A stretch of DNA of 64,000 bases, from the NCBI GenBank assembly GCA_049523455.1, contig JBEKMW010000007.1, positions 7,918 to 71,917 of the forward strand. Direction: 5' to 3'. The notes beneath the pieces are model-generated. The model did not search any database, had not been told where the DNA came from, and saw only the letters and a list, made by a program, of their open reading frames with translations. Shown piece after piece: positions 4,183 to 24,815 of this stretch; position 1 is the stretch's first letter; each line of letters starts with the position of its first letter. Origin of the DNA: Verrucomicrobiota bacterium. Lineage in GTDB: Bacteria > Verrucomicrobiota > Verrucomicrobiia > Limisphaerales > UBA11358. A program made the translations under genes and the position numbers.

Positions 4183-5104
4183 TCAACCCGTTATTCAGAC
4201 CCGCGGCCTGACCCGGTACTTTGGCCGCAAACCGGCGGTGGAAGACCTGAACCTGGACGTGCCACGCGGAAGTGTCTTTGCCTTTCTCGGTCGCAACGGT
4301 TCGGGCAAGACCACAACGATCCGCATGCTGCTGGGACTGCTGCAGCCCACGCGCGGCGAAGCCACCATCCTCGGTTACAATATCCTCAGCCTGCTTCCGG
4401 AAGCCAGGGCGCGCATCGGTTATCTCACCGAGGAACATCAACTCTACGCCTGGATGAGCGTCCAGGAGTGCGGCGACTTTCAATCGCGCTTTTATCCGCG
4501 TTGGAACGGAAAAATTTTCCGCGGAGTAATCGGGCATTTTAATCTCCGACCGGCCGCCCGGGTAAGGGACCTGTCGCGCGGCGAACAGGCGGGACTGGCT
4601 TTGGCATTGACGCTGGCGCCGGAACCGGAACTGCTGATTCTGGACGATCCCACGATGGGATTGGATCCGGTGGCTTCCCGGTCGGTCGTTGAATCCATGA
4701 TTTACCTCACCCGCCGTGCCGACCGGACGATATTCTTCTCCTCGCACCAACTGGCCGACGTGGAACGGGTGGCCGACTACATTGCAATTTTGGATCGAAG
4801 TGTTCTGCGCGCCTGCTGCACCTTGGAAACCTTTTCCAAGAGTGTGCAGCGCGTGCGCCTCCGCTTTCCTGGCGCCCCGCCGCCATTGCCTGAAATACCG
4901 GGACTGTTGCAGGCGCAACGGGCGGAAGGCGAACTCCGGGTGACTTGCGTCCATTACAACGGCGCGACCGAAAAAGTCTTGCGGGCGCTGGCGCCGGAGC
5001 AGATGGAGCTGGTTCCCATCAGCCTGGAGGATGCGTTCATCAGTTACCTGGGCGAGCGGGGCGAGAAATCATTCATTCTATCGGAAACGGAGGCACAACC
5101 ATGA
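4175..5104 (+). CDS. ABC transporter ATP-binding protein
   Basis: Walker A GRNGSGKTT, signature LSRGEQAGLALA and Walker B LLILDDPTMGLD are present. Overlaps the GntR gene by 8 nt. Confidence 0.9.
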   Translation: MNDQPVIQTRGLTRYFGRKPAVEDLNLDVPRGSVFAFLGRNGSGKTTTIRMLLGLLQPTRGEATILGYNILSLLPEARARIGYLTEEHQLYAWMSVQECGDFQSRFYPRWNGKIFRGVIGHFNLRPAARVRDLSRGEQAGLALALTLAPEPELLILDDPTMGLDPVASRSVVESMIYLTRRADRTIFFSSHQLADVERVADYIAILDRSVLRACCTLETFSKSVQRVRLRFPGAPPPLPEIPGLLQAQRAEGELRVTCVHYNGATEKVLRALAPEQMELVPISLEDAFISYLGERGEKSFILSETEAQP

Positions 5105-7869: not shown

Positions 7870-8211
7870 CGAAACTTGGCTGCTGCCTCGTAAATTGTTT
7901 CGTTCCAAGGGGCCTGGCACCAGGGGTTAGGCGAGACGGTTTTCGTGGCCGCCAGCCCCGTCTTGGGCTTGGCCGTCCTGGTGGTCTCGGCGGTAACGCC
8001 CCCCAGCTTGGGCAACGGCGTGCTCTGCCGGATCACCGCCCCCTGGTTGCTCCGCTGGATTTCTTCATAAACTTCCTTCCGATGCACCGGCACGTCGCTG
8101 GGGGCTTCGATGCCCGCTTTCACCACGTCGCCCTCCACGCGCACAATTTTTTATGTGAATGCGCCCATCAATAACGATGCTCTCGCCAGATTTTCTCGAA
8201 AGTATGAGCAT
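7839..8211 (-). pseudogene. csrA: csrA (carbon storage regulator) interrupted by a +1 frameshift in an A6 run
   Basis: ATG 8211 gives MLILSRKSGESIVIDGRIHIK. One extra A in the run at 8147-8152 shifts the frame. The other frame continues (I)VRVEGDVVKAGIEAPSDVPVHRKEVYEEIQRSN (track ORF 7839..8144). Confidence 0.8.
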
Positions 8212-8232
8212 GGGATAAAAAATGCAAACGGT

Positions 8233-8493
8233 TCAAGCCACGGGCAACGCATGTTGCGCGGAATAATTGGCGGCGTTGGCGATAATGACCTGTTTGCCCA
8301 CGTGCCTGTGGCGGTTGATGACGATGGGGCCCTTCAAATTGATGGTGGTCTCGTTGGCGTCGTGCAACGTTACGATGGTCAGCACCAGCGTGTCGCTCGC
8401 GTCCTTGACCCCGAGAAAACCCACGTCCGGCTGGGAAATATCGGTCCTGCCGACCTCCGGTGTCAGGGCTTTCCCTGACGCGAAAATATCCAT
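8233..8493 (-). pseudogene. fliW: FliW-family protein, C-terminal ~60% only
   Basis: TLVLTIVTLHDANETTINLKGPIVINRHRHVGKQVIIANAANYSAQHALP matches the FliW C-terminus (B. subtilis ...STANLMAPIIVNHKEKLAKQVVLHD...). All three frames are closed within 45 nt upstream of ATG 8493. Confidence 0.6.
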
Positions 8494-8834
8494 TTCCCCG
8501 ACTACGCGGAATGCTTCAAGGCAGGTAAACTCCTAAGATTTGTGGAACGGGATTGGCAGAGGCGAGTTTGGATCGTTAAAGACACGCTGAGGAGGGGGGA
8601 AAGCATCAGGCCGCGCGGGAAATTTCCGTGCGGCCGCTGTTTTTCCGGCCGGCGAACTTGCCCCAAAACGGCACCGTTACGCGGCAGAGGTACACGGTGA
8701 ATAACCGGTAAATAACTCACGGTTGATTTCCGTGCGGGAATGGGCGAATGGTTGTATAAGATAGTGAGAATGATTAAATTAGGAAACATGTTAATTGCTC
8801 GTCGTGATCCGCGATCCGGGGGGGTGGATAAAAA

Positions 8835-13632: not shown

Positions 13633-13678
13633 GCCGCATTCGCCAAAAGAGCGCGGATTGTCCTCAATCCGCAGCCCT

Positions 13679-13895
13679 GAAGAATTCGCGCATCAAACCC
13701 CTGAACCTGCCGATGCCACACGACCTTCCGAATATGAATGCTGCCCGGTTGCTTTCCCCTCTCCGCTCCCATCGGATGGGAGGGGAGAGGGTCAGGGTGA
13801 GGTGAGGGTTCTGGCTTCGTTGGCTGTCGGCTATTGGCTATTGGCTATTGGATTTCGAATGTTCCCCGGTTCATGGAGAGGGCCGGGGTGAGGGG
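13679..13895. repeat. Composite REP-1 element (reference copy for the cas4 insertion)
   Basis: gaagaattcgcgcatcaaac..gaacctgccgatgcc..ccgaatatgaatg..REP-1 hairpin..ggctatt heptamers..ccggttcatggagagggccggggtgagggg. Confidence 0.8.
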
Positions 13896-16181: not shown

Positions 16182-18731
16182 TCACGGCTTCACCACCGCC
16201 ACCACCAGCGCCTCCGGCCGCAGATACTTCTGCGCGGCGGCTTTCACTTGGGCCAGCGTCACGGCTTCGTATCGCGCGTCGTCCCATTCCGCGCGTTGCC
16301 AGCCGAGGCCGTACAGTTCGTCCAGTGCGGTGGTGGAGGCCAGATGGCCGAGGTCCTGTCGCGCAATCTTCTTCTGGCCGATGAGTTTGGCCTTCGCGCG
16401 CTTGAGTTCATCCGCTTTCAGTCCGTCGGTGCGCAGCAATTCGGCTTCTTTAAGCAATTCCGTTTCCACTTGCGCCGCCTTCGCCGGTTCCGTGCCGGTG
16501 TAAAACGCAAAGTAGCCCGGGACCAGTCCGGCAAAGTTTTGCGCGCCGACGTAGTAAGCCAGCCCCAGTTCATCGCGGATGCGCAGGAACAGCCGCGATC
16601 CTAGGTCGCTGCACGACTCTTGCAGCAGATCCAACGCGTAACGGTCCTCGTCCCCCATCGTCGTCCCCGGGAAACCGATCACCAACACCGCCTGCTTTTT
16701 GTCTCGGGTTTCTTCCATTCGATTGGATGTTGGATGTTCGATGTTCGATGTTGGATGTTGAATTCCCTCGCCCGGCTTCCATCGGCCAAACGCCTTCTTC
16801 ACCGCCGCCTTGACCCCGGTTGTCTTCACGTCGCCGTAAATGGCCACCACGGCATTGTTCGGCACGATGAGCTTGCGGTGAAACGCCTTCAAATCCGCGG
16901 TCTCAAGTTTTACCACGGAACCTTCCGTGCCCAAGACATCCAGGCCATACCCCCCGTTGCCGAACATGGCCTTGCGCATGGCTAGGCTCGCGCTCTTGAG
17001 CAGGTCGTCTCTTTGCGCATGAATGCCCGCAATTTGCACCTCGCGTTCGCGTTTCATTTCGTTTCCGGGGAAGACCGGGTTCAGCACGACGTCGGCCAGC
17101 AACGCCAGGCCGGTCGCAAAATCGCTGCTCAGCACTTCCGCGGTTACGCCCAGACTGTTGTTGCCGCCGTAGCTGTCAATGCTGCCGCCGACCGATTCGA
17201 TTTCCGTCACAATCTTCTCCGCGCTGCGCGTCTGGGTGCCCTTGAGAAGCATTTTGGAAAGCAAGTGGGTCACGCCGTTGTTCCCGGCGGTTTCGGCCAG
17301 TACGCCGCCTTGAAAAACGGCTCGAAACTCCACGAACGGCAGGCGATGGTCTTCCTTCACCAGCAGCCGCAATCCGTTCGCCAGCTCAATTTTCTGGATC
17401 GCGTGGTCCGCGTTGGTCTCGATTTCCAGGCGGGCCTTCGGGGCGGCGCCGTTGGGCAGCAGCGCGTAAAGCGTGCGGTTTTCCGGCGTGAGATATTCCC
17501 GGGCGACGCGCTGCACGTCGGCGCGCGTCACGCGTTTGACGGCCGCCAGGTAGCGCTCGGAAAAATTCAGGTCGTTGGCGGCCAGCCAGTTGCCCCCCAG
17601 GTTTTGCGCCTGGCCTTCCATGGTCTTGCGCGCCGCCAAAGTGCCCGAGACGAATTGTTTCACCGCCTTTTTTACTTCCCCGGCCGAGACCGAACTGGAT
17701 TTGACCCGTTCGACTTCGGCCAGCATCGCCTCACGCGCCGGTGCGAACTTATCGCCGTCAGCGATGGCGCTCAGGCCGAAGAGTCCCGGCAAACCGGGAC
17801 TGTAAGTCCAGGCTTCGACGTGATGCACCAGGCCCTGTTTCTCGCGCACCTGCTGGAAAAGACGGGAGCTATGGCCGCCGCCCAGCAGCACGGCCAGCAC
17901 GTCGAGCGCCGGGATGTCACGATGGCGCAGTTCGGGAATATGCCAGGCAAAATGAAAATGCCCGAGTTCAATCGGCGCCTCCTCGACGATTTCGCGTGGC
18001 GCGGTCTGCTTGGGCTCCGCCGGCAGGACCATCGGCGGCAGCGCCTGGGCCTTGGTCTTTCCGTAGGCGGCGCGGATTTGGGCCACCACCTCGTCGTTTT
18101 TCACGTCGCCGGCCACCACGTAGAACACGTTGTTGGGCGCGTATTTCTCGTGGTAATAGCCGTGAATGTCGTCGGGCTTGAGTTCGTTGAAAATGTCGGG
18201 GTACCCGATGATCGTGAAGCGATACGGGCTTTTGGTGTAAGCGGCTTCAAACAACCGGCGGCTCGCGCGGCGGGCGGGATCGTCCTGGCCCATGTCCATC
18301 TCGCGGCGGATCACATCCATTTCCTTGGCCAATTCGTCCGGCGGCAGCGTGGCGTGCTGCATGATGTCGCACAGAATATCAATCGCCGTATGCGCGCCCG
18401 TGTTGGGCACGTCAATGTGATACACCGTGCGGTCGAAGCTCGTGTACGCGTTCATGTAACCGCCCGCCTCCTGCACTTCCTGGTCAATGCGGCTCCCCGG
18501 CCGCGTCGTCGTGCCCTTGAACAGCATGTGTTCGAGCACGTGCGACAGCCCCGCGCCGAGCCACCGGCCTTCGTTGATGCTTCCCGTGGCGCACCACGCT
18601 TGCGCCGACACCACCGGCGCGCTGTGGTCCTCGCCCACGATCACCACCAGCCCGTTCTCGAGCGTGGTGATATTCACCCCCGGTGGCTGCGACGGGATTT
18701 CACCATTTAGACCTGATTTACTCATTGGCAT
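16182..18731 (-). CDS. Fused double M16-family (pitrilysin/insulinase-like) zinc peptidase
   Basis: HxxEH zinc motif in GLSHVLEHMLFKGT. A second M16-like half follows. The halves are joined through an IQHPTSNIEHPTSN segment encoded by a heptamer tract. Start chosen at ATG 18731. Confidence 0.85.
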   Translation of the reverse strand: MPMSKSGLNGEIPSQPPGVNITTLENGLVVIVGEDHSAPVVSAQAWCATGSINEGRWLGAGLSHVLEHMLFKGTTTRPGSRIDQEVQEAGGYMNAYTSFDRTVYHIDVPNTGAHTAIDILCDIMQHATLPPDELAKEMDVIRREMDMGQDDPARRASRRLFEAAYTKSPYRFTIIGYPDIFNELKPDDIHGYYHEKYAPNNVFYVVAGDVKNDEVVAQIRAAYGKTKAQALPPMVLPAEPKQTAPREIVEEAPIELGHFHFAWHIPELRHRDIPALDVLAVLLGGGHSSRLFQQVREKQGLVHHVEAWTYSPGLPGLFGLSAIADGDKFAPAREAMLAEVERVKSSSVSAGEVKKAVKQFVSGTLAARKTMEGQAQNLGGNWLAANDLNFSERYLAAVKRVTRADVQRVAREYLTPENRTLYALLPNGAAPKARLEIETNADHAIQKIELANGLRLLVKEDHRLPFVEFRAVFQGGVLAETAGNNGVTHLLSKMLLKGTQTRSAEKIVTEIESVGGSIDSYGGNNSLGVTAEVLSSDFATGLALLADVVLNPVFPGNEMKREREVQIAGIHAQRDDLLKSASLAMRKAMFGNGGYGLDVLGTEGSVVKLETADLKAFHRKLIVPNNAVVAIYGDVKTTGVKAAVKKAFGRWKPGEGIQHPTSNIEHPTSNRMEETRDKKQAVLVIGFPGTTMGDEDRYALDLLQESCSDLGSRLFLRIRDELGLAYYVGAQNFAGLVPGYFAFYTGTEPAKAAQVETELLKEAELLRTDGLKADELKRAKAKLIGQKKIARQDLGHLASTTALDELYGLGWQRAEWDDARYEAVTLAQVKAAAQKYLRPEALVVAVVKP
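16725..16766. repeat. Six-unit heptamer tract inside the M16 peptidase gene
   Basis: ggatgtt|ggatgtt|cgatgtt|cgatgtt|ggatgtt|gaattcc (42 nt, in frame). Encodes IQHPTSNIEHPTSN on the minus strand. Confidence 0.9.
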
Positions 18732-18818
18732 TGAACGAGAAACATATGCGGAAATGCGTTTTGAGCAACCCAAATTGGCAAACGCGGGCAGAAATGGACA
18801 TGCCCCTCCTCCCATCGG

Positions 18819-19167
18819 ATGGAGAGGGCCGGGGTGAGGGGCTCGTTCACTATTTCATTGGATGTTGGATGTTCCCCGAGGGCCATGGCTTCGGATCGCA
18901 CGCTGAGGAGGCCGGAACTTTTGGACTGCGCCGGCAAAGCGAAGCGGCGACGGCGCTTTCGGATGTCGGGGGCTCATGGATCTGCGCAACCGCGTTGGGC
19001 CGCAGTGCCCCCTGAAACATTTCTCCTTTCTGCTTTGTTCTCCGACCTCTGACCTCCGACCTCAGCATGTCAGCATGTCAGCGTTAAACGCCCATGGTCC
19101 TCAGTCTCGTGGTCTGTGGTCTCGTTGTCAGTAGTCTCGTGGTCTCGTGGTCTGTGGTCTGCAGTGC
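18819..19167 (+). repeat. ~350-bp dispersed composite element, copy 2
   Basis: Same as 13873-14230 apart from a few substitutions and one ~10-nt indel (tttcagcttttt). Confidence 0.9.
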
Positions 19168-19253
19168 TCGATGTTCCCCGGTTCATGGAGGATTTTGCCA
19201 AAGTGAAAGAAGCTTTGATTCGTTTGTTAAACTTGCAGACCTAACCGATTTTC

Positions 19254-19330
19254 GCGCACGGTCGAAGCCCGGTTTCCCACCACGCGCCTTTGGGTTTGGC
19301 CAGGAAGGAATCCTTGCGGCGCCGGCGGAA
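19254..19330 (+). repeat. REP-like module D (cacggNcgaagcccgNtttcccNccacgcg...), copy upstream of hicB
   Basis: Related copies at 19859-19934 (after hicA) and 20493-20527 (after parE). Confidence 0.7.
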
Positions 19331-19393
19331 CTGGCAAAGCCGCAAAGCCGCCTGAACGGTTGCGTAATCCGTCCGGTTGTTTATATTGTCCGC

Positions 19394-19633
19394 GTGAAAA
19401 CCTATCACGAGTTCGAGATCAATTATTTTCAGGACGAGGACGGGATGTTCACGGCGGAAGTGCCGGCCATTCGCGGCTGCGTAGCTTGGGGCAAAACCAT
19501 CGTGGAGGCCTATCACAACGCGGTGGACGCCATTGAAAGCTGTCTGGAAGCGCGTGAAAAAGTTGGCGCCAGGAAGCCGCGCAAACCTCGTTACGCCGGG
19601 CTGAACATCTACCGCCGTCAGGTTCATGCCTAA
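19394..19633 (+). CDS. hicB: HicB-family antitoxin
   Basis: VKTYHEFEINYFQDEDGMFTAEVPAIRGCVAWGKTIVEAYHNAVDAIESCLE. GTG 19394 chosen inside track ORF 19094..19633. Overlaps hicA by 8 nt. Confidence 0.75.
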   Translation: MKTYHEFEINYFQDEDGMFTAEVPAIRGCVAWGKTIVEAYHNAVDAIESCLEAREKVGARKPRKPRYAGLNIYRRQVHA

Positions 19634-19844
19634 ACTCGTGCCGGTTTCGCACCGCGAACTCGCCCGCAAACTCCGCCGGGCGGGCTTCGTGGAAATCCGC
19701 ACCAGCCGTCATCCGGTTTATTATTCGGCGGCCAAAGACCTGACCGTTCCCATTCCCCGCCATCCCGGCGACGTGCCTAAGGGCACGCTGCGCAGCATCA
19801 TTCGCGAAATGGAAATCAGGGTTGAAGAATTCAACGCCCTGTGA
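19626..19844 (+). CDS. hicA: HicA-family mRNA interferase toxin
   Basis: MPKLVPVSHRELARKLRRAGFVEIRTSRHPVYYSAAKDLTVPIPRHPGDVPKGTLRSIIREMEI is the typical HicA/YcfA fold signature. Confidence 0.85.
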   Translation: MPKLVPVSHRELARKLRRAGFVEIRTSRHPVYYSAAKDLTVPIPRHPGDVPKGTLRSIIREMEIRVEEFNAL

Positions 19845-19858
19845 TCGGACCACGGGCG

Positions 19859-19934
19859 AAGCCCGATTTTCCGCCACGCGACTTGGGGTTGGGACCGGAA
19901 GGAAGCTTTGCGGGGACGGAAGCGGTTCAATCCT
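19859..19934 (+). repeat. REP-like module D, copy between the two TA pairs
   Basis: ccacgggcgaagcccgattttccgccacgcgacttggggttgggaccggaaggaagctttgcggggacggaagcgg. Confidence 0.7.
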
Positions 19935-19968
19935 TGCCAACAGGCAGCGTCGAACTTAAATTGCGTCC

Positions 19969-20199
19969 ATGAGCAAAATGGAAATTCTGGCGGAACTGCC
20001 CAAACTGGCGGTCGCGGACCGGCGCGAGATTTTCGATCATCTCTGCGACTTGGAGGAGCGCGACCTGCTCAATGGCGGTGCGACGCCAGAGGAAAAGGCC
20101 CTGCTCGACCGTGAAATGGAAGAATACCGCCGGAATCCCGACGCCGGTTCGACTTGGGATGAAGTGCAAACCCGCATCCGCAAACCGGCCCGCCCGTGA
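19969..20199 (+). CDS. Addiction-module antitoxin component
   Basis: MSKMEILAELPKLAVADRREIFDHLCDLEE...EMEEYRRNPDAGSTWDEV. Stop overlaps the toxin GTG start (GTGA). Confidence 0.7.
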   Translation: MSKMEILAELPKLAVADRREIFDHLCDLEERDLLNGGATPEEKALLDREMEEYRRNPDAGSTWDEVQTRIRKPARP

Positions 20200-20483
20200 G
20201 CTGGCGCGTTATCATCCGGCCGAACGCGGAGGCGGATTTGCGCGAAGCATGGGCGTGGTATGAGTCCCAGCGCCCCGGTTTGGGCGATGAATTGTTGATG
20301 GAAGTCCATGCAGCGATTCGCCGGCTGGAAAGCGACCCGGAGCGCCGCCCATTTTATTACCGTGATTTTCGCCGCCTCCTCACCCGCCGGTTTCCTTACA
20401 AGCTTTTTTATCGCGTGGAATGCGAGCGCGTCATGGTTTTCCGCATTTTGCACGCGAAACGGGAGCATCGGCGGCAGCTTTGA
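20196..20483 (+). CDS. parE: RelE/ParE-family toxin
   Basis: IIRPNAEADLREAWAWYESQRPGLGDELLMEVHAAIRRLESDPERRP...RRFPYKLFYRVECERVMVFRILHAKRE. Confidence 0.8.
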   Translation: MSWRVIIRPNAEADLREAWAWYESQRPGLGDELLMEVHAAIRRLESDPERRPFYYRDFRRLLTRRFPYKLFYRVECERVMVFRILHAKREHRRQL

Positions 20484-20510
20484 ATGGAACGGCGCACGGT
20501 CAAAGGCCGG

Positions 20511-20595
20511 TTTCCCACCACGCGCCTGCGTTTTGGACTGCGGTGGCAAGCGCAGCGCGACACCGCTTTCCGAACATCAATTAAACCACCGGGAC
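20511..20595 (+). repeat. REP-like module, copy 2
   Basis: cgcgcctgcgttttggactgcggtggcaagcgcagcgcgacaccgctttccgaacatc... Confidence 0.8.
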
Positions 20596-20707
20596 ACGCC
20601 TCGTCATTCCCATAGCGCCGTCACCGCTCCACTCTGCCGGCGCATTCCAAATGAAAGGTAATGAAACCAGTCGCGGTCAACTGCCCCGCTCTTGCGCCGC
20701 GTCACAA

Positions 20708-21145
20708 GTTTCAATCCGCGCCCCGCGCACATGCGCGGGGCGACCCGGTAGGGCGGCGCTGCCGCGCCGCCCCAACTCAGTTTCAATCCTGTTTGGAATT
20801 TGAAATTTTGGATTTTCGATTGGGGTCACAATGGTCCAAGGCCGCTCCGGCTTTCAATAACCCACGCCATGTACCCGAGGAAGCCGTCATACTTTCCAAT
20901 CCACGCCCCGCGCACATGTGCGGGGCGACCCGGATATGTCCGATCCGTCCAATACGTCAGATCGGTTTCAATCCGCGCCCCGCACACGCGCGCGGGGCGA
21001 CGTCATGCAGCAGGTCCGCAGCGAGCGCATGAAGGAGTTTCAATCCGCGCCCCGCGCACGCGCGCGGGGCGACAAGTCATCCGCGACCTGCACGACACCA
21101 AAAAAATCGTTTCAATCCGCGCCCCGCGCACGCGCGCGGGGCGAC
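20708..21145 (-). CRISPR. CRISPR array with a 37-nt repeat and 35-nt spacers, type I-C-like, interrupted and decaying at the distal end
   Basis: Plus-strand repeat is gtttcaatccgcgccccgcgcacgcgcgcggggcgac, at 21109-21145, 21037-21073, 20965-21001 (1 mismatch), 20893-20929 (4 mismatches) and 20708-20744 (2 mismatches). A 10-nt stub sits at 20780-20789. On the minus strand it ends ...GGATTGAAAC and has a 9-bp stem gccccgcgc/gcgcggggc. Confidence 0.9.
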
Positions 21146-21352
21146 TGCGGCCCTCCCTCTCGGTTGAGCCGCAAGCACTTTTTAGCCCCTTTTCGCCAAC
21201 CTGCCAATCCCTCTCGCACGCTGACGTTCCGATATGTCAAAGAACGATGGAAAATGCCCGCCATCATTGCGGTTGCCCCCTGCCGCGAAATCCCGGTTGC
21301 CGGCCCGTCACTTCTGGTTCGCGGAATGGCGTTCATACAATCAATGGTTCGT
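21146..21352 (-). promoter_or_regulatory. Putative CRISPR leader between the cas1 stop and the first repeat
   Basis: Position only. The best-conserved repeats abut this side and degenerate repeats lie at the far end. No Cas2-like frame is seen here in any of the 3 minus-strand frames. Confidence 0.4.
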
Positions 21353-22228
21353 TCAGATCCACTGCGTCACCGCCAGACGGTCAGCCAGCCACGGACGGAA
21401 TTCCTCCATCAAATCCAGCGCCAGCCCCGGACGGTTCGGGCGGTCGGCGTGGAGAAACCCGACAAACGGATCGAGGCCGATGCTGGTCAAAGCCGCGATG
21501 CAATCATGCCGCACCAGCGCGTATAGAAACGAAAGCAGACAATTGATGCGGTCGCGCGGCGGACGGCGGCTGCGATTGGCAAACGTGAAGTCCCCGCGCT
21601 GCTGCTTGAGCAACCAGGTGAACACGCCAAAATAAGTCGCGCTGCCCATGCCTTCCGCGCCGCGCAAAGCGTCAAGCGCGCCGGTTTTCCGCAAATCATC
21701 GGCCGTCCATCGGCCGAGTTCCTGAATTTGGCCCGCCAGCTTGTCGGTCGCCTCTGAAATTTGAGATCTGTCGTTTGAAATTTCAGATTCGCGCCCCGCC
21801 CGGAGCAGAGAGTTGCGGCTGTTTTGGAGTTTGCCGGCAATGATTTGCCGCGCGATGGCCGCGCATTTGGCCGCATCATCGGCGGCGCGGAATTGTGCCC
21901 GCCGCAACGTCACGCTGGTATCCGCCACGCCCGTCATCCGCGCCTGGAGATAACCGTTTTCGCTTAAAAAATTCACCGCCACGCCGTGTTCCCAGCATAA
22001 ATCCAGCGCCGGCGGACTGATGGTGCTTGGCCCAAAGACACAGATGGATTCCAGCATGTGAATGGGGATGGACAGTTTCTTCCAGTCCGACACCCGTTCG
22101 CGAATGCGTTCCGCAGGCGGGAGATCGTCAGGATACAACGGCACTTCCACTTGCAGCGTTAAATGGTCGCGCGCCACGTAGCTGGCGGGCGTCGTCAGAT
22201 ACAGCGTGTTTTGGGCAAAGTCGGGCAT
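21353..22228 (-). CDS. cas1: Cas1 (type I-C-like), apparently C-terminally truncated
   Basis: NTLYLTTPASYVARD... then RPPRDRINCLLSFLYALVRHDCIAALTSIGLDPFVGFLHADRPNRPGLALDLMEEFRPWLADRL, then a stop after ...AVTQWI. 291 aa, versus the ~340 aa I recall for I-C Cas1. Contains the ESEISNDRSQISE segment encoded by an AT-rich palindromic motif. Confidence 0.85.
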   Translation of the reverse strand: MPDFAQNTLYLTTPASYVARDHLTLQVEVPLYPDDLPPAERIRERVSDWKKLSIPIHMLESICVFGPSTISPPALDLCWEHGVAVNFLSENGYLQARMTGVADTSVTLRRAQFRAADDAAKCAAIARQIIAGKLQNSRNSLLRAGRESEISNDRSQISEATDKLAGQIQELGRWTADDLRKTGALDALRGAEGMGSATYFGVFTWLLKQQRGDFTFANRSRRPPRDRINCLLSFLYALVRHDCIAALTSIGLDPFVGFLHADRPNRPGLALDLMEEFRPWLADRLAVTQWI

Positions 22229-22264
22229 GGGAGATCTGAAATTTGGGATTTTGAGATTTGAAAT

Positions 22265-22792
22265 TCAGATGAGGCCGCGCTCCTCGGCGTCCTTGCGGAG
22301 CGGATGATTTGGCGGCAGACTGCGCAACAACTGCTTTTGCATCGCCACCGCCCGTTGCTTCTGGCCGTCCGCTTGCCGGGATTTGTCCGTCAAATGCCGC
22401 TGACCTTTGATGTCCGAGTTTTGCAGCGAATCCGCCCAGCCGCGCAACTGCCGGGAACACGACTCGGCTATGGATTTCAAATTTGAAATCTCCGATCTGA
22501 GATCCGCCGGCCAGTTCGCCTTCCGGCCCCGGCGCTCTTTCAAACAGAGCATCGAGCGCACTTCGCCCGCCGAACCGCGCGCGATGTAAATAAACGCAAG
22601 GAGTTCATTGGTCGTGCCGCGCTCGAAACCCTCGGCTACGTTGTTGGAAACCGACAGCGCCGCGCGGTCCAGTTGGTCGCGAAAGCCGCGGCTCGCGGGG
22701 AACGACTCGTTTTCCAGCAAGTCTTCCGTCGTTTCGTAAAGGTCGGCGGCCTTCTGCCACACCGGCAGGTCTTCGAATCGTTTATAGGTCAT
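22265..22792 (-). CDS. Four-helix-bundle protein (23S rRNA intervening-sequence protein family)
   Basis: MTYKRFEDLPVWQKAADLYETTEDLLENESFPASRGFRDQLDRAALSVSNNVAEGFERGTTNELLAFIYIARGSAGEVRS. Start chosen at ATG 22792 within track ORF 22265..22936. Confidence 0.85.
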   Translation of the reverse strand: MTYKRFEDLPVWQKAADLYETTEDLLENESFPASRGFRDQLDRAALSVSNNVAEGFERGTTNELLAFIYIARGSAGEVRSMLCLKERRGRKANWPADLRSEISNLKSIAESCSRQLRGWADSLQNSDIKGQRHLTDKSRQADGQKQRAVAMQKQLLRSLPPNHPLRKDAEERGLI

Positions 22793-22866
22793 GGGGATTG
22801 GGGGGGTGAGGGTGGTGGTTATTTTCGTGAGTTGTCCGGGAAATATAAAATGTTCGATTTGAACTT

Positions 22867-23766
22867 TCAAATTTGAAATATCTGTCTGGCCAGCCGTTCC
22901 GCCCGGCTGTCCTCGCCCGCGGCTTTGGGCAGACAAATTTCAAACAGCGAACATTCCTCGCAAGCCGGTTTGAAAATGGCCGGCGGCACGCGCTGTGAAT
23001 CCAGCAAGCCCCGCAACTCCCCGAGCGAACGCTCAACCAACGCCCGCAATTCCGGCGTAAACTCCACCTCGCGCCGGCGTTTGCTCGCGGCGTGAAAGAC
23101 CGCGCCGCGTTCAATCTGCCGCCCGAGCATTTCCTCCAGGCACAAAGCCTGCGCGCAAAGCTGCGCATCGTCATTCTCAAACGCGCGGCGTTTGCCTTTT
23201 TTATATTCCACCGGCACCAGTGCGCCGATCCCTCGCCCATCAGATGCGAGAGAATTCCCCGAAGAATTCGCGCATTGAACTCCCGAACCTGCCGATGCCC
23301 GGCGAGCCTCCGAATATGGATGTCGCCCGCTTGCGGTTCCCTCTCCGCTCCCATTCTGATGGGAGGGGAGAGGGTCAGGGTGAGGTGAGGGCCCTGCCTT
23401 CATTGGATGTTGGGCGTTGAATGTTGAATGTTGAATGTCCTCCGGTTCATGGAGAGGGTGGCCGGAGGTCAGGTGAGGGTGAACTTCCACCACGTCGCAT
23501 TTCCCGGAAAGCCCCAGCCGTTCCGACCAAACCGGCAGCGCGCGTAAGAGCGTAACACCCTTGGCGACTTCGTAACCCGGCAAATCCGCGTGTTCATGGA
23601 CAATATCACCAAGGACAGTGTGTTTGTTTTCTGAGCGAACGCCCTCCACCGCCTTCAACGCCGCCCGTCGCGGGCAATAGAGCAAATCGTTGAGGAGCGA
23701 GAGGGGCAAGGTTTCCCGTTCCTCACTGTCTGAAATTTGAAATTTTGGATTTTCGATTGGGGTCAC
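22867..23766 (-). CDS. cas4: Cas4 (RecB-like nuclease, I-C-like) carrying a large in-frame repeat-derived insertion
   Basis: N-half reads LPLSLLNDLLYCPRRAAL...LGLSGKCDVVEV. C-half reads ALVPVEYKKGK...DDAQLCAQALCLEEMLG...ACEECSLFEICLP. About 86 unrelated codons lie between them. GTG start overlaps the upstream stop. Confidence 0.85.
   Translation of the reverse strand: MTPIENPKFQISDSEERETLPLSLLNDLLYCPRRAALKAVEGVRSENKHTVLGDIVHEHADLPGYEVAKGVTLLRALPVWSERLGLSGKCDVVEVHPHLTSGHPLHEPEDIQHSTFNAQHPMKAGPSPHPDPLPSHQNGSGEGTASGRHPYSEARRASAGSGVQCANSSGNSLASDGRGIGALVPVEYKKGKRRAFENDDAQLCAQALCLEEMLGRQIERGAVFHAASKRRREVEFTPELRALVERSLGELRGLLDSQRVPPAIFKPACEECSLFEICLPKAAGEDSRAERLARQIFQI
23261..23480. repeat. Copy of the composite REP-like element (same family as 13679-13895) inside cas4
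   Basis: Shares gaagaattcgcgcat..gaacctgccgatgcc..ccgaatatg.., the hairpin ccctctccgctccca-ttctga-tgggaggggagaggg, gtgaggtgaggg, heptamers ggatgtt/gaatgtt and ccggttcatggagaggg, in the same order as 13679-13895. Confidence 0.8.
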
Positions 23767-24182
23767 AGGAGTTCCAGCAACTTCACCTCAGCGGGTAGAT
23801 GTACCCGATCAACAGTGATCTTGGCCTTGTAATCATCAAACGATCAGGCGACTCCAACCTTGGGAACGCCGCCCGGCGCGGGCAATAGAGAAAATCGTTG
23901 AGAAGCGAGAGCGGCAAGGTTTCTCCCTCCTCACTGTCTGAAATTTGAAATTTTGGATTTTCGATTGGGGTCACAGGAGTTCCAGCAACTTCACCTCAGC
24001 GGGTAGATGTGCCCGATCAACAGTGATCTTGGCCTTGTAATCATCAAACGATCAGGCGACTCCAACCTTGGGAACGCCGCCCGGCGCGGGCAATAGAGAA
24101 AATCACTGAGGAGCGAGAGGGGCAAGGTTTCCCGTTCCTCACAGTCTGAAATTTGAAATTTTGGATTTTCGATTGGGGTCAC
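23767..24182 (-). repeat. Two 208-bp tandem units, each a chimera of a cas7 3' end and a cas4 5' end
   Basis: Units are 23767-23974 and 23975-24182, with only a few mismatches. Each encodes ...SFDDYKAKITVDRVHLPAEVKLLELL* (Cas7-like tail) followed by GTG-TPIENPKFQISDSEE..LPLSLLNDFLYCPRRAA (Cas4 start). Confidence 0.85.
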
Positions 24183-24649
24183 AGGAGTTCTATTAACTCC
24201 ACAGTCTTGGACAAACCATTGCGGTTGACGGTCACATCGTAATCGTCGGCGAATGGCCGGGGTGCTCTCCTTTCCGCCTTCACTTTTTCTTTCAACTTCA
24301 CCGTAACACGATCAAAGAGTTGGTGTGCAGGAGAATTGCCGAGTGCCGACTGGTGCTTGAACACGATAAGCTTTCGCGGAGCCATGAGACCGTGAAACGA
24401 TGACTCATCGCCCATGAACATGTTCCGCCCAAATTCCTCCTCGACTGAGGCACGTCCGCAAAGGGCACGGAAAAGCGTGGCCAAGTCGTCTTCAGTGAAG
24501 TTGCTCGGCGGCTTAGCGTGTAAAGCGTCCGGCCGTCTTCGTCCACAGCCGTATGTGCATAGAAGCTCATATCGCCCGGCAGGAGATTTTTCTGATGCCA
24601 TGCGAGCAATAGCAAGACGCCCAACCCGGCGCAAATGTTTTTGATTCAC
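24179..24649 (-). pseudogene. cas7: Cas7 (Csd2, type I-C) 3' fragment; the N-terminal half is missing
   Basis: FTEDDLATLFRAL...NMFMGDESSFHGLMAPRKLIVFKHQSALGNSPAHQLFDRVTV...RPFADDYDVTV matches the Csd2 C-terminal region as I recall it. No upstream cas5, cas8c or cas3. Confidence 0.65.
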
Positions 24650-24815
24650 ATCTCACGCCCGATAAGCTAACCGGCAGGGTTGGACAAATGCAGTCCAACC
24701 CAAAATTTTAATTGCAGGATGCACCGAGTGAATTGCAAACGCGCATTGCAGCAGACCAAGGCCATTCTCTGCGGTGAATTTGCCTTTGCGCCCACGCTGG
24801 GGCTGGCCCGTCAAA

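Follow-up and report, generated by a model that had tools for sequence, protein, structure and literature searches.

We analysed a 64,000-nt stretch of DNA from a Verrucomicrobiota bacterium (hereafter, the window) that carries on its minus strand the remnant of a type I-C CRISPR-Cas locus (short palindromic repeats, clustered and regularly interspaced, with their associated genes). Between a truncated cas7 gene and the cas4 gene of this locus lie two tandem 208-bp units, 23767-23974 and 23975-24182. Read on the minus strand, each unit combines 98 nt of a cas7 end (tail B) with 110 nt of a cas4 start (a head). The minus-strand order across the region is a cas7 fragment (cas7-A), head 3, tail B, head 2, tail B and head 1, the last of which is continuous with cas4:

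24179-24649, minus strand: 3′ fragment of cas7, lineage A (Pfam Cas_Cas7, profile positions 172-248 of 249, E = 1.4e-12)
24183-24280, minus strand: tail A, the end of the cas7-A fragment in the register of the repeat, PFADDYDVTVNRNGLSKTVELIELL and a stop
24073-24182, minus strand: cas4 head 3, comprising nt 1-110 of cas4; its GTG overlaps the stop of cas7-A, and the sequence breaks off after ..CPRRAAF
23975-24072, minus strand: second copy of cas7 tail B (98 nt from the 3′ end of a lineage-B cas7), containing a TGA in frame
23865-23974, minus strand: cas4 head 2, with private substitutions
23767-23864, minus strand: cas7 tail B copy 1, differing from copy 2 at 1 of 98 nt
22867-23766, minus strand: cas4 (Pfam Cas_Cas4, split match; 299-aa open reading frame), of which 23657-23766 is head 1

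The sequence-only reading of this DNA had described the units as near-identical chimeric joints of a cas7 3′ end and a cas4 5′ end, and both parts of the description were confirmed. Tandem Repeats Finder detected an array of period 208 at 23657-24190, scoring 991, with 2.6 copies, 95% matches and no indels, and a repeat search placed three copies in one register: 23657-23864, 23865-24072 (96%) and 24073-24280 (70%). Minus-strand translation reproduced every peptide that had been quoted, and Pfam recognised both Cas7 and Cas4. Tail B ends ...SFDDYKAKITVDR(V/A)HLPAEVKLLELL and a stop; the head is a GTG-started Cas4 N-terminus, MTPIENPKFQISD..LPLSLLNDFLYCPRRAAF, also read as MTPIENPKFQISD..LPLSLLSDFLYCPRRAAF. 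The tail of the units had further been said to differ from that of the adjacent cas7, and this held as well, since tails A and B are identical at only 58 of 98 nt and need gaps to be aligned. The three heads differ from one another at 5-8 of 110 nt; they are 93-95% identical among themselves, and no head from another locus exceeds about 82% identity to them. Head 2 has five private changes that neither outer head explains, and heads 2 and 3 have TTT..CGCGCC in common.

The joint within the units (..GGGCGGCGTT followed directly by CCCAAGGTTGG..) is identical in the two units of the window, in the related contig L082 and in two of the three units of another, L081. The third L081 joint (..GGGCGGGGTT followed by CCCAAGG..) carries a single G-for-C change, with the breakpoint unchanged. 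Microhomology at the joint amounts to at most 3 nt (GTT), and the joint lies 6 nt past a 5-bp GC hairpin, apart from which the unit showed no unusual structure when folded (z = -0.03). A promoter and terminator scan found no site within the units, and an Rfam search found no family in them. A look for RNA runs containing this DNA returned none. Nor do they resemble CRISPR repeat-spacer units: the "repeat" would be 110 nt long, and the "spacer" would be 98 nt long and near-identical between units. The 63-aa open reading frames in the units are not genes and should not be annotated as such; the locus is a non-functional remnant.

The window region was found in many peat metagenome runs, and four independent peat runs from different studies had Logan contigs that contain the joint between head and tail B. 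In one run (X1), the flanks had depths of 10-11 and the head-specific unitigs depths of 8.7, 11-12 (head 2) and 13.9 (head 3), whereas the unitig covering tail B and the joint reached 21.7, twice the flank depth; these values fit three heads and two tails, as in the window. Independent assemblies of the same population, with flanks 99.3-100% identical to those of the window, had other unit numbers: one unit in L082 and L091 (both from the European Nucleotide Archive) and three in L081 (from the Joint Genome Institute), compared with two in the window. The substitutions private to the extra L081 unit (24007 A>G, 24027 T>A) were seen again in run X3, on one contig. If the one-unit k141 contigs were assembled from 141-nt words, as their names suggest, the junction from head 3 to tail B(T), which spans distinguishing single-nucleotide polymorphisms (SNPs), would have to exist in the reads. 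Because the joint occurs in independent runs, the depths fit and other assemblies carry one or three units, the array is real and polymorphic, and not an assembly artefact. It has a constant period, a single joint and a polymorphic copy number, in agreement with a tandem array altered by unequal crossing-over.

With the window Cas1 as query, a scan covering one genome per species yielded 80 related I-C loci, nearly all in Verrucomicrobiota metagenome-assembled genomes (MAGs; best match 89%). Tail B matches the L013 Cas7 C-terminus (PKVGVARSFEDYKSKIAIDRNNLPPGVKLLELL) at 76% identity, and tail A matches the L064 tail at 79%. The body of Cas7-A is 87% identical to that of L073, whose Cas1 is just 71% identical to the Cas1 of the window. 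A search for a near-identical cas7-A gave as its best relative an intact-looking Cas7 on L090 (86% amino acid identity). The window Cas4 and Cas1, on the other hand, are closest to L001 (91% and 89%), in which the Cas7 C-terminus is of another type. These discordant closest relatives of cas7 and of cas4-cas1 indicate that the two sides of the cas7-cas4 boundary have discordant histories, as in a scar of module shuffling. Both tails are true Cas7 C-termini, but A and B belong to different lineages, so that at least two Cas7 lineages are joined to near-identical heads. In the cas7 frame, tail B contains a TGA (..PKVGVA-stop-SFDDY..; the whole tail reads ..PKVGVA, stop, SFDDYKAKITVDRAHLPAEVKLLELL, stop). 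We read this TGA as a mutated arginine codon, because L013 Cas7, the closest real Cas7, has arginine at that position. In a collection of 5.8 billion predicted proteins, which includes those of same-population assemblies, a padded 42-aa tail-B query found no Cas7 ending in a B-like tail, and no protein of the 5.8 billion had three 5-residue words in common with tail B.

Another cas7-cas4 boundary was found as a fossil inside the CRISPR array of the locus. Here an anomalous 148-nt "spacer" (20745-20892) is made up of a further Cas7 tail (tail C), the beginning of a cas4 head, a repeat end and a normal 35-nt spacer:

20779-20892, minus strand: third boundary fossil, with tail C at 20824-20892, head at 20789-20829 and repeat end at 20779-20788

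Tail C comprises about 63 nt of a degenerate cas7 end of a third type (..YDGFLGYMA..LLKAG..GPL and a stop) and aligns with the Cas7 ends of L080, L030 and L034 (..YDSFLGYMAGVLRLLKAGKAGFEPL and a stop). The head part, which differs from head 1 at two positions, corresponds to the first 41 nt of the cas4 head. The adjoining 10 nt are the end of a CRISPR repeat and resemble the 3′ end of the preceding repeat, R4. In L086, from another sample, a 185-nt unit holding this fossil is duplicated in tandem.

The first approximately 26 nt of the head (GTGACCCCAATCGAAAATCCAAAATC) overlap the cas7 stop. When at most six mismatches in 26 nt were allowed, this motif occurred at 20 sites in 18 loci, nearly all of them at a cas4 start or a cas7 stop. 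Reading the flanking sequence of the 18 loci revealed at least three Cas7 tail types (ending ..ELL, ..IWEIPE.. or ..GFEIL), and at the cas4 start the motif was conserved at about 90% or more across loci of differing tail type. Its presence at cas4 starts beside varied Cas7 tails indicates that the motif is part of the adaptation module, at its 5′ edge. Around the boundary, the motif and a cas4 block encoding LPLSLLNDFLYCPRRAAL are the best-conserved DNA and could plausibly serve as an anchor for homologous exchange between otherwise diverged loci. The switch between tails A and B is delimited by just 12 nt of shared tail end plus the motif. The proposal of the sequence-only reading that the exchange took place at the AT-rich motif at the cas4 start is therefore plausible, given the conservation of the motif across tail types.

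The 5′ end of cas4 was present twice in 12 of 77 related loci (L001, L002, L009, L013, L021, L028/L029, L031, L035, L047, L059 and L060); treating the near-identical L028 and L029 as one lowers the count to 11. The duplicated stretch measured 40-200 nt, and its copies were 73-93% identical and 370-1360 nt apart. The first copy comes after cas7 and ends variably, from Cas4 codon 27 to beyond codon 63; the second belongs to the intact gene, and its starts vary. Breakpoints cluster in Cas4 codons 27-50, and about half of the ends, that of the window included, lie at most 10 nt from ..GGGCGGCGTTGAAG. Seven of the ten inserts scanned with Pfam between the copies encode ParE, HicAB, PIN, PemK/MazF or DUF433 proteins. 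The origin of the first copy was mixed: its best match was the second copy of the same locus in four of nine cases. In a control self-comparison, no other place between cas7 and cas2 was recurrently duplicated, bar short heptamer-repeat arrays. Coordinates read by eye placed 0.45-3 kb of inserted DNA between cas7 and cas4 in about half of the loci with this Cas7 type, and L028 and L029 contained nested copies of the motif and head. Other repetition was seen in L029, where the cas7 3′ end recurs 3.6 kb apart (4418-4839 and 7963-8498), and in L044, where a second partial cas4-cas1 lies 8.5 kb downstream of the first (18122-18595).

The cas7-cas4 boundary thus looks recombination-prone from these comparisons. 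We found no description in the literature of the cas4-head duplication, of toxin-antitoxin inserts bracketed by it or of such tandem units, and of the by-products of the analysis the most interesting is that, in this clade, the 5′ end of cas4 is repeatedly found duplicated around toxin-antitoxin genes. A bolder generalisation would make the boundary motif of about 26-42 nt and the cas4 block a genuine recombination hot spot through which Verrucomicrobiota I-C systems exchange effector modules and capture toxin-antitoxin cargo; the units, tail C and the duplicated heads would then be footprints of one recurrent, possibly enzyme-assisted process. We put this forward as a speculation that is unlikely to hold.

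Outside the array, the remnant comprises the following features:

23215-23485, no strand assigned: in-frame insertion of about 246 nt in cas4, a dispersed repeat between the ..CDVVE and PVEYKKG motifs; absent from the L001 cas4
22265-22792, minus strand: four-helix-bundle gene (23S_rRNA_IVP, PF05635; Pfam E = 4.8e-20; 175 aa), between cas4 and cas1
21353-22228, minus strand: cas1, C-terminally truncated (Pfam Cas_Cas1, profile positions 1-248 of 283)
21146-21352, minus strand: leader, conserved with L001
20893-21145, minus strand: CRISPR repeats R1-R4 with three 35-nt spacers; 37-nt repeats ending ATTGAAAC
20708-20778, minus strand: last spacer (35 nt) and terminal repeat R6, the end of the CRISPR array

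The cas7-A fragment is frameshifted near 24530 and cut off near 24625, leaving the last ~40% of the gene. Searches of the 64-kb window by tblastn with the upstream open reading frames of L001, L013, L020, L030 and L073 found no cas3, cas5, cas8 or cas2; matches were confined to 20.9-24.6 kb, and the sole effector gene matched was the cas7 3′ end. In L001, cas1 continues for about 60 more residues and is followed by cas2 and then by the conserved leader, whereas the window lacks cas2. Relative to L001 (5990-6545), a deletion near 21353 has removed the last ~60 cas1 codons and all of cas2 and kept the leader, which is recognisably like that of L001. Of the parts of a complete I-C locus, cas3, cas5c and cas8c, a full-length cas7c and an intact cas4-cas1-cas2 were all lacking. 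Because cas3, cas5, cas8 and cas2 are missing, cas7 and cas1 are truncated and cas4 is interrupted, the locus is, as far as its gene content can tell, a dead, truncated remnant. Its five 37-nt repeats lie on the same strand as the cas genes, as in an I-C-type array. Repeats ending in this way are presumably of the I-C type; Rfam gave weak, sub-threshold CRISPR-DR9 matches to them on the minus strand.

The repeat inserted in cas4 is dispersed and GC-rich, carries (GTTGAAT)3 and has further copies in the window at 13675-13882, 601-668, 749-812 and 821-931. Its k-mer depth in peat metagenomes was 1000-2000x, compared with about 10x for the flanks, and it is therefore a very abundant element resembling a miniature inverted-repeat transposable element. 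The 23S_rRNA_IVP gene was found at the same position in 24 of the 80 related loci with 55-85% identity, about as conserved as Cas1, although the matches in L009, L076 and L007 cover just part of its length. Its product could be an unrecognised accessory protein of this I-C clade. We take PF05635 to include Avd-like proteins of diversity-generating retroelements. A retroelement of this kind was rejected as a source of the array, with no A-specific mutation pattern and no reverse transcriptase.

AT-rich heptamer arrays (about AAATYTS, 4-6 copies) were observed at 21753-21795, 22228-22270, 22470-22505, 22851-22893 and 23729-23757, the last also in its repeats, and at many places in L009, L017, L018, L044, L052, L061, L067 and L068. 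They stand at cas gene junctions; in several lineages they also occur in frame within Cas1, within the four-helix-bundle protein and within one and the same loop of Cas4 (peptides such as SEISNLKS). Next to the CRISPR array of the window lie a HicAB-like pair (19094-19844, plus strand) and an antitoxin/ParE-like pair (19969-20483, plus strand); only the HicB-like part has a Pfam match, below the gathering score, the other assignments having been made by eye. In 33 related metagenome loci, the conserved 193-aa gene that neighbours the remnant is followed directly by an M16 peptidase gene, and cas genes were present in none of 80 syntenic loci. As the flanking genes are adjacent elsewhere without cas genes, the CRISPR remnant and the toxin-antitoxin pairs (18816-24650) form a lineage-specific insertion of ~5.8 kb.

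We consider it probable that the 208-bp units are non-functional recombination scars, formed of the end of cas7-B and the start of cas4, in the dead type I-C remnant that this peat Verrucomicrobiota bacterium carries, and that they arose through an illegitimate join, effector replacement, gene loss and unequal crossing-over. One illegitimate join would have linked cas4 nt 110 to cas7-B nt -98 and so created a tandem duplication of the boundary; that every unit has the same joint, with one L081 unit a single base off, points to one founding event. The heads are each other's closest relatives, which argues for amplification in place, and the different outer tail calls for an exchange at or just upstream of a head. 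The most economical account of this outer tail would be replacement of the upstream effector module by one with cas7-A of the other lineage, with the crossover in the cas7-stop/cas4-start motif of the outermost head (..GAACTCCTGTGACCCCAATCGAAAATCC..). The inner copies of tail B would thereby have been protected as relics. Deletions would then have taken cas3 to the 5′ part of cas7, the 3′ end of cas1 and cas2, losses that are visible in the window, or just a fragment of the locus may ever have been acquired. Unequal homologous crossing-over between the 110-nt heads may keep altering the unit number, which is one, two or three in the assemblies at hand. The units probably have no function.

Several observations weigh against this account. 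Unit counts were taken from unitig depths and from assemblies of short reads rather than from single molecules; non-function is argued solely from the decay of the locus; and we infer both the order of events and the crossover point. The heads differ from one another more (5-8 of 110 nt) than the B tails do (1 of 98), which is unexpected for one recent duplication, though the difference is not significant (Fisher p = 0.07). Neither a donor locus for cas7-B nor a near-identical cas7-A was found in the protein collection. In L090, moreover, an A-type cas7 directly adjoins a cas4 start that is 92.5% identical to head 1 and 90% and 86.5% identical to heads 2 and 3, and that shares the leucine codon TTG with head 1 and cas4. 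This comparison covers 52-67 nt and hints that the native pairing could be that of cas7-A with cas4, the B units having come in from outside.

The L090 arrangement is a weak hint in favour of the alternative that we take most seriously, although we think it doubtful. B-type boundary fragments (tail B, motif and head) would have entered a resident A-type locus by one-ended homologous recombination, Campbell-like or homology-facilitated and illegitimate, with a homology anchor in the cas4 5′ block and an illegitimate join at cas4 nt 110; the resulting one-unit allele would have grown to two and three units by unequal crossing-over. Besides the A-type cas7 of L090 before a cas4 start so close to head 1, with TTG in common, the stretch TTT..CGCGCC shared by heads 2 and 3 and the one-unit allele in two independent assemblies agree with such an insertion, as do the other loci of like geometry, in which the first copy extends from the start of the gene to an end that varies, the second being intact. 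However, the heads are far more alike than heads of different lineages normally are, the five private changes of head 2 are explained by neither outer head, and the L090 evidence is limited to those few dozen nucleotides. The sequence-only reading had instead proposed recombination or gene conversion between two different I-C loci. The tails are indeed of different origin, but the window holds no second I-C locus, and no B-like Cas7 turned up among the 5.8 billion proteins. In its strongest form, with such exchange ongoing between two loci co-resident in this genome, the proposal seems to us quite improbable. Several related MAGs do give two I-C loci each (L005/L007, L017/L032 and L024/L039), L044 has its second partial cas4-cas1, and the heads look homogenised. 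Against this, the 64-kb window contains no other cas genes or repeats, the best relative of Cas7-A is just 86% identical, and the donor that the model asks for, a cas7 ending ..VDRVHLPAEVKLLELL, has no tail-B-like counterpart in the protein collection, which includes the assemblies of this population. Because neither the window nor the collection has a B-type Cas7, a co-resident donor locus today appears unlikely.

That the cas4-start motif is a dedicated att-like site of an integron-like, site-specific cassette system, through which boundary fragments, toxin-antitoxin genes and effector modules are inserted, would account for the duplicated heads that flank ParE, HicAB, PIN, PemK and DUF433 inserts in the 12 loci, for the nested motif and head copies in L028 and L029, and for the motif copy inside the CRISPR array, which precedes a 10-nt repeat end resembling the 3′ end of R4. 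It is nonetheless very unlikely, as the breakpoints in the 12 loci do not share a fixed crossover point (the ends of the first copy and the starts of the second both vary) and the units are without cargo; Pfam searches of neighbouring open reading frames at 18.5-26.3 kb found no recombinase gene beside the locus. We give practically no credence to a simple local tandem duplication with later divergence of the outer tail and no foreign DNA, even though the 208-nt period is perfect and free of indels: each of the two tails is closer to the tail of another genome than to its counterpart in the window, while the adjoining heads are 93-95% identical, and this contrast refutes it. The earlier view that a simple tandem duplication does not suffice was in this respect right, since two tail lineages need an exchange; it was incomplete in that tandem duplication and unequal crossing-over are still essential, given the alleles with one, two and three units and the heads being mutual closest relatives. 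It had also missed the truncated, remnant state of the locus as a whole, the third joint within the CRISPR array and the recurrence of cas4-head duplication elsewhere in the related loci. A second version of the local scenario, ectopic spacer integration by Cas1-Cas2, fares no better, as CRISPR integration duplicates a 37-nt repeat around a spacer of ~35 nt, and neither the unit size nor the identical "spacers" fit. Equally negligible is an artefact, whether repeat expansion by the assembler or strain mixing in a chimeric MAG. The window comes from a metagenome and the unit number varies between assemblies, but the joint and the head-specific unitigs occur in four independent runs at single-copy depth with tail B at double depth, and private SNPs of the units recur across samples; the artefact was rejected on these grounds as largely refuted.

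Recombination scars in a dead remnant, our preferred interpretation, share features with several known systems. Minisatellite-like arrays arise by tandem duplication, and their copy number is changed by unequal crossing-over. The array is like them in its exact period, its one repeated novel joint and its 1-3 copies among samples, and unlike them in that the unit is a chimera of two gene ends and that the outermost tail is of another lineage, which is beyond duplication alone. Homology-facilitated illegitimate recombination and Campbell-type insertion by one crossover are likewise familiar processes. The likeness here would be that one side is homologous (the cas4 5′ block or the motif), the other joint has at most 3 nt of microhomology and a duplicated anchor flanks the incoming DNA. 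Toxin-antitoxin genes are known to be embedded in cas operons within defence islands. Similarly, related loci have ParE, HicAB, PIN, PemK or DUF433 genes between cas7 and cas4, and the window has HicAB-like and ParE-like pairs beside the array; the difference is that the inserts in 12 loci are bracketed by a duplicated cas4 5′ end, whereas the units of the window are without such cargo. In integron cassette arrays, too, units stand in series, each ending in a conserved short site located at the 5′ edge of an array of genes, but here no integrase was seen in the Pfam search of 18.5-26.3 kb, there is no fixed crossover point and the duplication lengths vary.

The closest counterpart is the module shuffling of CRISPR-Cas systems. 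Phylogenomics has established the direction of exchange, in which the adaptation genes stay untouched and the effector genes are replaced (Hudaiberdiev et al. 2017, PMC5704561). As in the shuffling described there and by Koonin and Makarova (2019, PMC6452270), cas4-cas1 and cas7 of the window are discordant, and cas7 tails of three lineages abut one cas4 start. The cases in that literature were inferred from trees, whereas the window holds physical junctions, preserved as tandem-amplified relics within one subtype (I-C) and in a dead locus. Module shuffling is well documented by phylogenies, yet where and how the exchanges happen is rarely visible. Here the junctions themselves have been preserved: a single cas4 start has three different cas7 ends attached to it, and tandem amplification of one of these joints has given a polymorphic array. 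We accordingly offer the boundary motif, together with the conserved 5′ block of cas4, as testable candidate crossover sites. What the window contains is not a new kind of system; it is known module shuffling in physical form, combined with ordinary tandem duplication.

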